NCBI GenBank assembly: GCA_050012475.1
Contig: JBEKHC010000007.1
Span: 16,586-80,585 of the forward strand
Direction of reading: 5' to 3'
From: Candidatus Velthaea sp.
GTDB lineage: Bacteria > Vulcanimicrobiota > Vulcanimicrobiia > Vulcanimicrobiales > Vulcanimicrobiaceae
Length of the DNA: 64,000 nt
Shown here piece by piece: positions 25,601-28,600 of the stretch (the stretch's first letter is position 1; each line of letters begins with the position of its first letter). The position numbers were made by a program.

Positions 25601-28600
25601 ATCAACCATCGTGGCCATCAACCGATCGGCCGAAGACGGCCTCAATCGGCGATGAAGGTCCGCCTTGACATTTGTTAACTCGGGCTTGTAGGCTTGAAGC
25701 CGTGGAGAATTTTTCAGCCGAGCTGTGCGCGGCAATGAGCGAGGCCGGCGTTTCCGCCGCCGAGCTTGCGCAGCGCTCGGGATTGACCGAGGGCGCGATC
25801 TCCTACCTCCGGTCGGGCCGGCGCGAGCCCTCATTCCGCTCGATCCAGGCGCTCAATGCGGCGCTGCCCGAACTTGCGGCGCGCTTCGATACGGAACGGA
25901 GAAAAATGGACTCGATCGAGTCGGCCATCGCCGACATCAAAGCCGGCAAGATGGTGGTCGTGCTCGACGATGAGGAGCGGGAGAACGAAGGCGACCTGGT
26001 GATGGCCGCCGAGCGCGTCACGAGCGAAGCGATCAACTTCATGCGCAAGGAAGCGGGCGGCCTGATCTGCGTCGCCTTGACGGGCGAGCGCCTCGACCGC
26101 CTGCAGATTCCGCCGATGGTGAACGACAACACCACGCCTTTGGGCACGGCGTTTACCGTCTCGGTCGAAGCGCGCGGCCGGGTCACCACCGGCATCTCGG
26201 CCCAAGACCGCTCGAACACGATTCTGGCCCTGATCGATCCGGCGGCGACGCCGGCCGACTTTCTCCGCCCAGGCCACACGTTTCCGCTGCGCTCGCGCGA
26301 CGGCGGCGTGCTCGTCCGGGCCGGACAAACGGAAGCATCGGTCGACCTCGCGCGGCTGGCCGGCCTCAAGCCCGCGGGCGTCATCTGCGAAATCATGGAT
26401 GATGACGGCTCGATGATGCGCTTGCCGCATTTGCGCGAATACGCGAAGAAACACGATTTGCGGCTGGTCACCGTCAAAGATCTCATCGCGTACCGGATGC
26501 GTCACGAGAAGCTCGTGCAGCGGATCGCCGAGTTCAATTTGCCGACGCCCTTCGGCTTGTTTCGCGGCTTTGCGTACGAATCGAAAGTCGACGACGTCGC
26601 GCACGTTGCGCTGGTCATGGGTCACATCGGCGACGGCAAAGACACGCTGGTGCGCGTCCATTCGGAATGCCTGACCGGCGACGCACTGCATTCGATTCGC
26701 TGCGACTGCGGCGCGCAGCGCGATGCAGCGATGGAAGCGATCGCGCGCGAAGGCCGCGGCGTCTTTCTCTACCTGCACCAGGAAGGCCGCGGCATCGGCC
26801 TCGCCAACAAGCTGCGCGCCTACGCGCTCCAAGATGCCGGCGCCGATACGGTCGAAGCGAACGTTGCCCTGGGGCTGCCGGCCGACAAACGCGATTACGG
26901 CATCGGTTCGCAGATTCTCGTCGATCTGGGTGTCCGCGAGATGCGCCTGCTCACCAACAACCCCACGAAGATCGCCGGACTCGAAGGTTTCGGGCTGACG
27001 CTGGCCGGACGGGTGCCGATTCAGACCAACCCCACCGTGCACAACTCGCACTATCTCGACACCAAGCGCGACAAGATGGGCCACTTGTTTGCCGGCGCGC
27101 CGGCGACCGTGCCGGTCGTGCCGTGAAGAAGACCGCCGCGGCAACCTCCTATCCCGACGCCAAAGGCAAACGTTTCGCGATCGTTTCGGCCCGGTTTTAC
27201 GGCGATCTCGCCGACTGGCTCGAAGACGGGGCGCGCCGCGGACTGCGCGACTGCGGGGTGAGCGAAAGCGACATCGACTTCGTTGCCGTGCCGGGCTGCT
27301 TCGAGATTCCGCTCGTTGCGCGGAACCTCATCGTCGGCGGCGAGTACGACGGGATCGTCGCGCTGGGCGTCGTCATTCGCGGCGACACGCCGCACTTCGA
27401 CTATGTCGCGGGTGAATGCGCGCGCGGGATCATGAACGTGCAGCTTACCACCGGCGTGCCGATCGGCTTCGGCATTCTGACGACCGAAAATCTCGCGCAA
27501 GCTGAGGAGCGTGCCGATCCGCAGCGGCTCGATAAAGGGCACGAAGCGGCGGTTGCGGCGGCCAGCGTCGCCGTCATCGAACCGTCCAAGCGCGACAAGC
27601 AGCGCGTCGGATTCCGCTAAACCGGGCCGTCAATCTTGCGCTGAGAAATGCCCAGCGTTGCGGGCGTAGCACATGCCGCCAGCGAACGCTCCAGGCGTGG
27701 AATCGGTATGGTTCGACGGCGGAGCCGTTGGTTTTGTCGATCAGCGTGCGCTCCCGCAGGCAGTCGAGCGAAAGCAAGCGACCAGCGTCGATGAGGTGGT
27801 CGATGCCATCGCAACGTTAGCGGTTCGCGGCGCTCCGGCGATCGGTATTTTCGGCGCGTACGGAATCGCGCTCGCCGCCAGCCTGCACGGCGGGCAGCAC
27901 TTCGACGTCGCCGCCCAACGCATTCGCAACGCACGGCCGACGGCGGTCAATCTCGCTTGGGCCGTCGATCGCGTGCTGGCGCGCGAAGACGGCGAGTATC
28001 TCGCCGAAGCGCGCGCTATCCACGACGAGCAGCGCGAGATCGATCGCCGTATCGGCCGAGCCGCCGTCGACCTCTTCCCGGCGGCGGGAAACGTGCTCAC
28101 CCATTGCAACACCGGGCCGCTCGCAACCGGCGGCGACGGGACGGCGCTGGGCTGTTTCATCGCGGCATTCCGCAGCGGGAAAGCACTGCATGTTTACGCC
28201 GACGAAACCCGGCCGCTATTGCAGGGCGCGCGCCTGACGATGTTCGAGTTGCACGAAGCGGGCGTGCCGTGCACGCTCATCGCCGATTCGGCGGCGGCGA
28301 TCACCATGCAGCGCAAAGCGATCGTCGCGGTCGTCGTCGGCGCCGATCGCATTGCCGCCAACGGCGATGCGGCAAATAAGATCGGCACCTACGGCGTCGC
28401 CATCGCCGCCGCGCATCACGGCATTCCGTTCTACGTCGCCGCGCCGCGTTCGACGATCGATTTCTCGCTGGCCGACGGCAGCGGCATCCCGATCGAGGAG
28501 CGCTCGCCCGACGAGATCCGGATCGCTCCGGGCGACGATGTCTACAATCCGGCGTTCGACGTCACGCCCGCTTCGCTCATCGCCGGGATCGTCACGGAAT

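Follow-up and report, generated by a model that had tools for sequence, protein, structure and literature searches.

The ribBA–ribH locus

The window, that is, the whole 64,000-nucleotide stretch of Candidatus Velthaea sp. DNA that was analyzed, carries a single 474-residue open reading frame on its forward strand (25702–27126, GTG start, with the stop codon ending at 27126) in which a helix-turn-helix (HTH) domain is followed by a DHBP synthase and a GTP cyclohydrolase II. The fusion reported in the survey's finding is therefore real. The frame is already open from 25672, and the conserved start is the GTG at 25702. The N-terminal Cro/C1-type HTH domain spans 25702–25905 (residues 1–68, with the variable linker at approximately residues 61–70 included). 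Its match to Pfam HTH_3 (PF01381), at residues 14–55, scores 24.8 bits with the full-length protein and 29.2 bits when residues 1–68 are searched alone, the Pfam cut-off being 23. The DHBP synthase (RibB) domain lies at 25918–26493 (residues 73–264; DHBP_synthase, 294 bits) and the GTP cyclohydrolase II (RibA) domain at 26521–27018 (residues 274–439; GTP_cyclohydro2, 235 bits); both exceed the Pfam cut-off and stand in this order, and only a short linker, about 8 to 14 residues, separates the HTH from the N terminus of the DHBP synthase.

A solved RibBA structure, 4I14 (residues 3–408), aligns with residues 68–466 of the fusion only (E = 1e-145), leaving the HTH outside the alignment. In a PDB search, the HTH had its best matches in the phage 434 repressor and HigA (E = 0.013 each), with ClgR and controller C-proteins also among the hits, and PF01381 or PF13560 is carried by 117 of 120 homologues among the matches listed. 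In the enzyme part, the acidic loop D89–D98 (DDExRENEGD) of the DHBP synthase and C323, C334, and C336 of the GTP cyclohydrolase II are invariant (n = 64 sequences); we take this loop and these zinc cysteines to be the catalytic motifs of the two domains. The fusion is the sole match to PF00926 (DHBP synthase) and the sole match to PF00925 (GTP cyclohydrolase II) across its own genome and, as judged from sequence, the cell has no other enzyme to catalyze the two entry steps of the riboflavin pathway.

The next gene, ribH (lumazine synthase; 27123–27620, forward strand; Pfam DMRL_synthase, 164.5 bits), begins with a GTG at 27123 that overlaps the ribBA stop codon by 4 nt (GTGA), as had been noted before. 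This overlap makes translational coupling probable, and ribH is found downstream of ribBA in related loci too. On the other side, the spacer to the stop of the upstream open reading frame (at 25325) is 376 nt long, rather than the 481 nt given earlier, and Tandem Repeats Finder detected no repeats in it. One RNA-library contig of 300 nt matches the window without a difference at 25719–26018, across the HTH/enzyme junction, and is weak evidence. Positions 25381–25704 had no cover in the RNA-library runs, and contigs of this kind cannot show transcript ends. Over 100 database entries bear just the name "RibBA"; they leave the DNA-binding domain unnamed and disagree on the start codon, an annotation that the present analysis corrects.

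Start codon and conservation of the HTH domain

A start codon occurs at the equivalent position in all 38 loci compared (ATG in 21, GTG in 17). Met69 is kept in only 10 of the 38 orthologues, so a short form of the protein is not generally possible. In 35 sequences, the HTH gave a dN/dS of 0.25, the enzyme domains one of 0.14, and the linker one of 0.76, and the recognition helix and the loop that follows it are almost invariant; by this comparison of coding sequences, the HTH is under purifying selection. These observations bear on a concern attached to the survey's finding, namely that the true start might be Met69, in which case the N-terminal extension would not be made or would be functionless and the HTH frame would be a relic or a 5′ leader. 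It is true that GGAGAAAA, which resembles a ribosome-binding site, precedes Met69 in the genome studied here, and that some gene callers choose Met12 as the start of a shorter protein. Nonetheless, the distribution of Met69, the dN/dS of the HTH, and the near-invariant recognition helix argue against a start at Met69, as do the 54 family genomes in which the match runs across the junction uninterrupted by stops and the position of the promoter (described later) directly 5′ of codon 1. We regard a missing or functionless HTH as hardly credible.

Distribution of the fusion

The conservation claimed for the family was borne out in a larger set. Residues 1–110 were matched in 59 of 61 family genomes, and in the 54 just mentioned the match starts at residue 1–5. 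In one further genome (G019), the contig runs out at residue 60 of the match, four genomes match from residue 63–71 only, and the two genomes without a match have a completeness of 65% and 84%. G022, which belongs to the four and was earlier counted as an enzyme-only match, in fact encodes a fusion truncated where its contig stops: the residues encoded in frame upstream can be aligned with the linker, and the fusion is complete in its congener G090.

Within a sample of the phylum, the full fusion was present in 77 of 80 genomes of the same family and in both genomes (2/2) from a sister family within the order. All 10 genomes of another family (f3) matched the RibB part only, and the other families of the phylum gave a match to the RibB part or none. 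Hence, the statement that the fusion is missing from other families of the phylum needs revision, since the sister family carries it, and the design is not unique to the phylum either (see later). Within the phylum, the fusion is confined to one order and two families. Because members lacking the HTH are nested inside fusion clades, we interpret them as losses. In one of them (G043), ribBA directly follows ribE, which lies 72 nt upstream, an order also seen in seven of nine loci of other families. The HTH-less loci of G038, G043, and G047 were also searched for remnants of the domain, with no significant match. A search for close relatives of the HTH that stand alone yielded 16 short proteins, 13 of which are fragments of the same fusion; the remaining three consist of the HTH alone and sit on short contigs (506–2916 nt). 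One listed homologue, P0118, is labelled as coming from another phylum.

The upstream dyad and promoter

Upstream of the fusion gene lies a 16-bp dyad, CTTGACATTTGTTAAC / CTTGACAnnTGTTAAG (25664–25679, no strand assigned), with the core TTGACA-NN-TGTTAA at 25665–25678, which we consider a putative operator. Its left half is a −35 hexamer, TTGACA (25665–25670, forward strand), read from the sequence and conserved across loci. A −10-like hexamer, TAGGCT (25689–25694, forward strand), follows 18 nt after the −35 hexamer and ends 7 nt before the GTG start.

The dyad was first seen in 29 of 29 loci, and a position weight matrix (PWM) trained on those 29 found it in eight of eight further fusion loci, the sister family included, with scores from 17.5 to 28.2. 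A like dyad is thus present 29 to 66 nt 5′ of the start in 37 of the 37 fusion loci having upstream DNA and in none of 12 HTH-less loci (three from genomes of the same family and nine from other families, none above 12–13), although these counts do not represent independent events, given the kinship of the genomes and the training of the PWM on 29 of the 37 loci. Background was low, with one site scoring at least 14 in 48,796 bp of coding DNA. Dyad positions 2/15, 3/14, 5/12, and 6/11 are complementary in 36 to 37 of the 37 sites. Since the left half-site doubles as a consensus −35 element, part of the conservation of the dyad is conservation of the promoter, and the argument for an operator rests on the right half and the symmetry. 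Two dyads, 29 to 30 bp apart, are present in 6 of the 37 loci.

When the PWM was run over the whole genome, the site at 25664–25679 ranked top (27.7, with the next best at 19.9). The second-best site, at position 33647 of contig C6, was set aside, since the AT-rich, iteron-like repeats around it have no relation to riboflavin. Near ribD–ribE, the same scan gave no site above 11. The predicted regulon is accordingly a single operon, which differs from the pathway-wide control exerted by RbkR or a riboswitch. Searching five complete relatives with the dyad pattern at one mismatch or fewer recovered the ribBA promoter in all five plus three other places, the reversed control pattern giving five hits; an extra near-match 5′ of a Fur-like small gene (in G004) was dismissed because such matches occur at the rate of the control pattern.

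A strict TANNNT hexamer at a spacing of 17 to 18 nt occurs in 20 of the 37 loci, always 6 to 7 nt before the start codon, and many −10 elements are weak across loci. No Shine–Dalgarno sequence fits between the −10-like hexamer and the start codon. From this geometry, a leaderless mRNA starting at the conserved GTG or ATG is predicted. A simple consensus promoter scan of 24300–27800 returned no promoter, so that the promoter call rests on conservation.

The FMN riboswitch

Bacterial riboflavin genes are taken to be under the control of the FMN riboswitch (PMC5397151). In agreement with the survey, no such riboswitch (RF00050) was detected in the genome (E ≤ 1, 148 of 148 candidates scored) or in the region 24300–28000 of the window (E ≤ 10). 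The same search was negative in 61 family genomes and in 150 phylum genomes, HTH-less lineages included, the sub-threshold hits in G042 and G067 scoring 25 and 15.5 bits against a cut-off of 66.2. The suggestion that the fusion replaces the FMN riboswitch does not follow from this pattern: RF00050 is missing from 150 of 150 phylum genomes, among them families and members without the HTH, so its absence is not tied to the fusion and a "replacement" would not be specific to the clade. Moreover, because HTH-less relatives also do without the riboswitch, the HTH is dispensable in some members.

An independent fusion in Hyphomicrobiales

In Hyphomicrobiales, RibBA or RibBX carries a Cro-like HTH of another kind, and one continuous match was obtained in 78 of 80 loci. 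Here, a single frame of 425 to 441 residues encodes an N-terminal Cro-like HTH, a DHBP synthase, and a GTP cyclohydrolase II-like domain. This protein is the sole DHBP synthase in five of five genomes, four of which lack RF00050. The two fusions are alike in their domain order, in having an upstream dyad, in providing the sole DHBP synthase, and in mostly occurring without the riboswitch. The Hyphomicrobiales dyad, T-N-AGY-N3-RCT-N-A (TTNAGY-N3-RCTNAA), differs from that in the window, and one of its bases varies with a residue of the recognition helix: Gln goes with T in 30 of 41 cases, Ala or Gly with C in 23 of 28, and Leu with G in 5 of 10.

The Hyphomicrobiales HTH is not detectably related to the window HTH (BLASTP, E = 0.18), and the C-terminal domain scores 91 to 115 bits, compared with 235 bits in the window protein; this domain may be of the inactive RibX type. 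With an HTH of no detectable kinship, another dyad, and a lower-scoring C-terminal domain, the Hyphomicrobiales fusion is of independent origin. RibBX is described without an HTH in excerpts of the work on that protein (bioRxiv 10.1101/2025.05.05.652280). Together, the lineages with a fusion are one order of Eremiobacterota and many Hyphomicrobiales, several of which have cultured species (for example, Methylobacterium, Xanthobacter, and Bosea). A third type of HTH, found in P0172, hints at more such fusions.

Proposed autorepression and alternative explanations

We think it likely that HTH-RibBA is an enzyme that represses its own ribBA–ribH operon. Transcription would proceed from a sigma-70-type promoter (TTGACA, 18 nt, TAGGCT), with the transcript starting at the GTG at 25702 or 1 nt before it, which would give a leaderless mRNA. 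Full-length HTH-RibBA would then be translated, and RibH would follow by coupling. The enzyme part is expected to dimerize, as RibB and RibA enzymes do, bringing two N-terminal HTHs together, and this pair would bind the 16-bp dyad. Since the −35 hexamer makes up the left half of this site, a bound HTH would exclude RNA polymerase, and negative feedback would thereby limit the amount of the pathway's entry enzyme. Control of its own operon by the fused HTH had been proposed in the survey's finding, and this part gains comparative support from the dyad on the operon's own −35 element, the co-occurrence of dyad and fusion (37/37 versus 0/12), the purifying selection on both the HTH and the enzyme parts of the one polypeptide, the poor conservation of Met69, and the parallel in Hyphomicrobiales with its covariation of dyad and recognition helix. 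The replacement of a riboswitch, the metabolite-dependent binding implied by "trigger enzyme," and the restriction to one family of the phylum are not supported in the form proposed.

A refinement of autorepression, which it does not exclude, is that the protein is a true "trigger enzyme" whose binding to DNA depends on a ligand of the catalytic part (ribulose-5-phosphate, GTP, an intermediate of the pathway, or a flavin), so that the protein reports pathway demand and functionally stands in for the FMN riboswitch. The short linker between the HTH and the DHBP synthase and the recurrence of the design in lineages mostly without RF00050 speak for such a switch, as do the known enzyme–repressor fusions RbkR, BirA, and NadR, which are ligand-controlled (PMC5397151). 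In Rhodopseudomonas palustris, flavin output rises when residues of the RibX domain of RibBX are substituted, an HTH going unmentioned in the excerpted text (bioRxiv 10.1101/2025.05.05.652280). However, autorepression needs no ligand, and a concentration-dependent form would fit equally well; furthermore, the riboswitch is missing from HTH-less relatives too. We know of no flavin binding by RibBA, nor of a basis for end-product feedback through it. On balance, a ligand-operated switch seems possible but somewhat doubtful. We would put forward with similar caution the broader idea that two or more unrelated lineages of bacteria have converged on HTH-RibB(A/X) as a metabolite-sensing protein equivalent of the FMN riboswitch. 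If this were true, the entry enzyme would read the state of the pathway via its own active or regulatory sites and set the transcription of its own operon.

Two other explanations concern the sign of the regulation and the identity of the regulator. The HTH-RibBA dimer might activate its own promoter, or activate and repress it by occupancy, in the manner of controller C-proteins. Paired sites are known from HTH proteins that both activate and repress, and the paired dyads in 6 of the 37 loci and the many weak −10 elements would suit such a mode of action. Yet the center of the dyad lies about 30 nt upstream of the predicted transcript start and includes the −35 element, a position typical of occlusion, and the −35 is already a perfect TTGACA, which makes activation improbable. 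Alternatively, a separate transcription factor could bind the dyad while the fused HTH has another target or role, for instance at other places on the DNA or in contacts with proteins. These genomes encode many Cro/C1 HTH proteins, and a free 135-residue paralogue was seen in one of them (G054). Against a separate factor stand the strict co-occurrence of dyad and fusion, the lack of any other strong site in six genomes, and, in the alphaproteobacterial family, the covariation of a dyad base with the recognition-helix residue of the fused HTH itself; we consider this explanation very improbable.

Relation to known regulators

The closest parallel to the proposed autorepressor is the archaeal RbkR, which likewise joins a riboflavin-pathway enzyme to an N-terminal DNA-binding domain, has operators derived from comparative genomics, and occurs in hosts without the FMN riboswitch (PMC5397151). 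RbkR is a CTP-dependent riboflavin kinase acting at the end of the pathway, whereas RibBA acts at its entry; its DNA-binding domain is a winged HTH and not a Cro/C1 HTH; its regulon takes in several rib and transporter genes, compared with a site at the fusion's own operon only; and its DNA binding and ligand response have been measured (PMC5397151), whereas the window fusion is known from sequence. Membership of the window protein in the RbkR family was rejected, since Pfam shows only HTH_3, DHBP_synthase, and GTP_cyclohydro2, and we propose no more than an RbkR-like way of working. BirA, NadR, and PutA, also called trigger enzymes (PMC5397151), similarly combine vitamin or cofactor catalysis with an N-terminal DNA-binding repressor in one polypeptide, but they belong to other pathways, have other folds and operators, and their ligand logic is established. 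In most bacteria, the FMN riboswitch, often found at ribB or the rib operon, exerts the negative feedback on riboflavin genes that is proposed for the fusion; it is made of RNA and senses FMN, whereas the fusion is a protein.

By sequence, the window HTH falls into the same fold class as the phage 434 repressor and Cro, HigA, ClgR, and controller C-proteins, with weak similarity (E = 0.013 at best). As dimers, Cro/C1 (XRE) proteins bind short dyads that often cover a promoter element, and we propose the same for the fusion. They dimerize alone or via small domains, whereas the fusion would do so via a metabolic enzyme. Protein transcription factors that bind a bacterial ribA (RibBA) promoter are known from Wolbachia, but wBmxR1 and wBmxR2 are separate activator proteins tied to a type IV secretion operon and are not fused to the enzyme (PMC3518464). 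Our literature search found no description of an HTH–RibBA fusion, and excerpts of a 2025 review of riboflavin regulation name no bacterial DNA-binding regulator (PMC12542839).

Taken together, these comparisons point to a previously undescribed way of controlling vitamin B2 synthesis through a protein, in bacteria without the usual FMN riboswitch. For such lineages, the predicted system offers a concrete alternative made up of a defined 16-bp dyad, a promoter, and a protein, and the double origin of the design argues for its adaptive value. Because several genera with the alphaproteobacterial version include cultured species, and the phylum has a cultured member, Vulcanimicrobium alpinum (PMC9758169), experiments are feasible.

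Domain organization of HTH-RibBA

HTH-RibBA is encoded by a single open frame of 474 codons with a GTG start (window 25702–27126, + strand). Pfam places a Cro/C1-type helix-turn-helix (HTH_3) at residues 14–55 (24.8 bits versus a cut-off of 23; 29.2 bits if residues 1–68 are scanned alone), DHBP synthase (DHBPS) at residues 73–264 (294 bits), and GTP cyclohydrolase II (GCHII) at residues 274–439 (235 bits), which confirms the survey's finding of an HTH joined to RibBA in one frame. Because the alignment to the solved RibBA 4I14 begins only at residue 68, about 67 N-terminal residues are extra; among solved structures, this part most resembles the phage 434 repressor and HigA (E 0.013 each). 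No DHBPS or GCHII match other than the fused gene occurs in the genome (93.8% complete), and this gene must therefore encode the working enzyme. As reported earlier, ribH overlaps ribBA, its GTG start at 27123 overlapping the ribBA stop (GTGA). Upstream, an open frame for a PAC_bac-family protein ends at 25325, so that the spacer measures 376 nt and not the 481 nt given before. The part of this spacer upstream of the promoter (25337–25640) contains about five weak direct repeats with a 61-nt period (pairs 70–86% alike; autocorrelation peak at lag 61), and neither Tandem Repeats Finder nor Rfam gave a match in it.

Thirty-eight orthologous loci were oriented and read in frame. Codon 1 is ATG in 21 and GTG in 17, that is, a start codon in 38/38, with an in-frame stop a few codons upstream in most loci. 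The obvious alternative start, Met69, is preceded in the own genome by GGAGAAAA and is found in only 10 of the 38 orthologues, the others having F, I, L, or V at this position; judging from this alignment, a shorter enzyme would be impossible in most genera without cutting into the DHBPS domain. Median pairwise dN/dS values (NG86, 35 complete sequences, usable pairs of 595) were 0.25 for the HTH, 0.76 for the linker, 0.136 for DHBPS, and 0.135 for GCHII. Within the recognition helix and the following loop, T29, E30, A32, I33, S34, L36, R37, G39, R41, P43, and S44 are invariant or nearly so. A 300-nt metatranscriptome contig, identical to the window, covers 25719–26018 across the HTH/enzyme junction; as such libraries can hold DNA, it is a weak hint of a junction-spanning transcript.

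A predicted operator on the ribBA promoter

When 29 loci were aligned upstream of their conserved start codon, the dyad CTTGACA-NN-TGTTAAG emerged (window 25664–25679). The −35 hexamer in its left half is perfect and is followed after 18 nt by the −10-like TAGGCT and, 7 nt further, by the GTG start. Among 37 sites, dyad positions 2, 3, 5, 6, 11, 12, 14, and 15 are invariant or nearly invariant, and the pairs 2/15, 3/14, 5/12, and 6/11 are complementary in 36–37 of the 37. Since the promoter does not need the right half, its conservation and the symmetry point to recognition by a dimeric DNA-binding protein. A strict TANNNT stands 17–18 nt after the −35 in 20 of the 37 loci, always 6–7 nt before the start codon, and weaker hexamers (nAGTCT) occupy the same place in others; this geometry would be that expected of a leaderless mRNA.

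Six loci of one subclade (L007, L010, L016, L019, L022, and L030) have two dyads 29–30 bp apart, which suggests cooperative binding or a shifted promoter; the proximal dyad lies about 6 nt nearer the start codon. Ten of 37 loci (L003, L015, L017, L018, L026, L041, L042, and L044–L046), the window not among them, carry a second conserved element, (A/G)TATATC, just upstream of the −35 at about −44 to −47 relative to the start. Another subclade shares TGGGCAAAGCC further upstream, and both elements may be UP-like or serve a second factor.

The dyad accompanies the fused HTH

The dyad is present in 37/37 fusion loci (34/34 without L005, L009, and L021, whose genomes are marked unpublished), counts that are not independent events, as 29 of the 37 sites trained the weight matrix and the genomes are related. 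Applied to loci outside the training set, this matrix found the dyad in eight of eight further fusion loci (six of the own family, two of its sister family in the same order; scores 17.5–28.2). No site above 12 was found in the own-family genomes with an HTH-less ribBA (G038, G043, and G047), and none above 13 in nine loci of other phylum families (about 4 kb each); the background is one site of at least 14 in 48,796 bp of coding DNA.

In the own 5.36-Mb genome, the ribBA-promoter site scored highest (27.7). The next best site (19.9) was rejected as a further target, as it lies in an unrelated repeat region outside the window (C6:33580–33900; L032 2580–2900), where about 1.2 kb of AT-rich intergenic DNA holds repeated, iteron-like CGTTAAA...CTTTACA units; its score arose by chance. 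The same scan gave no operator-like site near ribD-ribE (window 15796–17572), which lies 8 kb upstream of ribBA. There, a DUF427 (NTP_transf_9) gene (15543–15823) lies upstream of ribD and adjoins or slightly overlaps it; ribD has no spacer of its own and is probably cotranscribed with this gene. In five complete relatives, the pattern with at most one mismatch matched the ribBA promoter in 5/5 and three other places, and the reversed control pattern gave five matches. From these genome scans, the predicted regulon appears to be the protein's own operon alone. The closest unfused relative of the HTH that was seen is a free-standing 135-aa Cro/C1 protein (L040, G054:C2:1177091–1177324), 42% identical to residues 14–63.

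Distribution and history of the fusion

The fusion is common across the family, as the survey had stated: the full form is present in 54 of 61 genomes of the family sample and in 77 of 80 own-family genomes of the phylum sample. Its reported absence from other families holds for family f3 (10/10 genomes match the RibB part only) and for the other phylum families, which match the RibB part only or not at all with residues 1–110 as query; it does not hold for the sister family, where both genomes have the full fusion. G022, previously counted as lacking the HTH, has its gene cut by a contig end; the residues that remain in frame upstream can be aligned with the linker, and its congener G090 carries the fusion.

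A tree was built from the enzyme part of 48 rows, leaving out L014, L028, and L048 for insufficient length. In it, G038 and G043, which lack the HTH, branch inside fusion clades, the position of G047 is not resolved, and at least three changes are required by the starred branches. The best-fitting history is a single gain in the order and then a few losses. Gene order distinguishes the two kinds of locus: ribE immediately precedes ribBA in G043 and in seven of nine HTH-less loci of other families, with 24–72 nt from the ribE end to the enzyme start. Where the fusion is present, the HTH with its promoter separates ribE from the enzyme part, or ribBA-ribH has been relocated; ribE was seen no more than 1.7 kb away in 14 of 38 fusion loci, and the closest one ends 281 nt before the enzyme part.

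FMN riboswitches

The Rfam FMN riboswitch model, RF00050, found no match in window stretch 24300–28000 at E ≤ 10, in the own genome with all 148 candidates scored, in 61 family genomes, in 150 phylum genomes under strict filters, or in five genomes lacking the HTH, where all or most candidates were scored; control genomes gave the expected signal in each search. The survey's observation that genome and upstream spacer contain no FMN riboswitch thus stands. Its reading of the fusion as a replacement was overstated: RF00050 is missing phylum-wide, also from HTH-less genomes, and the fusion thus does not qualify as its one-for-one substitute. The fusion may fill the same need in one order.

A parallel fusion in Alphaproteobacteria

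A profile of residues 1–110, run against 1.84 billion representative proteins, found proteins beyond the own clade with a different HTH ahead of the DHBPS start. A search with one of these, P0159, gave 21 proteins, 20 of them with PF00926 and PF01381, and scanning species genomes yielded 522 relatives. The top 80 of these (L069–L148) all match the HTH and junction and are all from Alphaproteobacteria, mostly Hyphomicrobiales (Aestuariivirga, Microvirga, Methylobacterium, Bosea, Xanthobacter, Ancylobacter, Pseudovibrio, Roseibium, and others; e.g., L120 2501–3811 and L116 2501–3814). The match is continuous in 78 of the 80 loci, and 75 of 78 complete frames encode 425–441 aa. Pfam recognizes HTH_3/HTH_26, DHBP synthase, and a weaker GCHII-like domain (91–115 bits), which may belong to the RibX type known from R. 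palustris. Five named genomes encode no DHBPS besides the fused gene (5/5), and RF00050 is absent from 4/5; no Rfam family reached threshold in 16 of the loci. As the HTHs of the two lineages are not detectably related (E 0.18), the alphaproteobacterial fusion is, by sequence comparison, of independent origin. Among database proteins, P0172 (a 206-aa fragment) has a third, different HTH joined to a DHBPS start, and P0144 (1002 aa) and P0146 (703 aa) are made of 11 and 8 tandem HTH_3 domains.

Upstream of the alphaproteobacterial genes is another dyad, T-N-AGY-N3-RCT-N'-A (TTNAGY-N3-RCTNAA), whose variable base follows a single residue of the recognition helix in 79 loci: among 41 loci with Q, 30 have T (7 have no dyad); among 28 with A or G, 23 have C (5 have no dyad); and among 10 with L, 5 have G (3 have no dyad), related genomes sharing labels in these counts. 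If the fused HTH reads the dyad directly, three specificity classes would be expected to change together, as they do here, and by analogy this co-variation supports the same reading in the window.

Proposed mechanism and relation to known systems

RibB and RibA enzymes dimerize. In the most likely mechanism, which we consider probable, HTH-RibBA limits its own level by binding over the −35. A leaderless ribBA-ribH mRNA would yield full-length HTH-RibBA, whose enzyme part would dimerize and pair the HTHs; these would bind the dyad and exclude RNA polymerase, and the pathway-entry enzyme would hold down its own level. The core of the survey's proposal, an enzyme regulating its own operon, is supported by the predicted operator on its own promoter and by the parallel fusion with its co-varying dyad. 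Given the same site, a different protein might bind the dyad, or the fused protein might activate its promoter instead of repressing it; both are less likely, as is an N-terminal extension without function. That a ligand of the enzyme part modulates DNA binding is a tentative addition to autorepression, somewhat doubtful at present.

Among described systems, the nearest is RbkR of archaea, in which a winged HTH is joined to a riboflavin kinase (PMC5397151), whereas the present protein is a bacterial RibBA with a Cro/C1-type HTH. The available text of the same paper has bacterial rib genes controlled by FMN riboswitches and lists BirA, NadR, and PutA as bacterial enzyme-regulators; that of a 2025 review names RibR, an RNA-binding protein, and no bacterial DNA-binding regulator of rib genes (PMC12542839). 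Wolbachia wBmxR1/2 are reported to bind the ribA promoter (PMC3518464), but as separate activator proteins and not as an HTH fused to RibBA. Riboflavin is not mentioned in the description of Vulcanimicrobium alpinum (PMC9758169), and we found no description of an HTH-RibBA fusion in the literature outside subscription journals and supplements. A defined predicted operator and convergent evolution in cultured bacteria add to the interest of these proteins, more than 100 of which stand in public databases under the name RibBA only.
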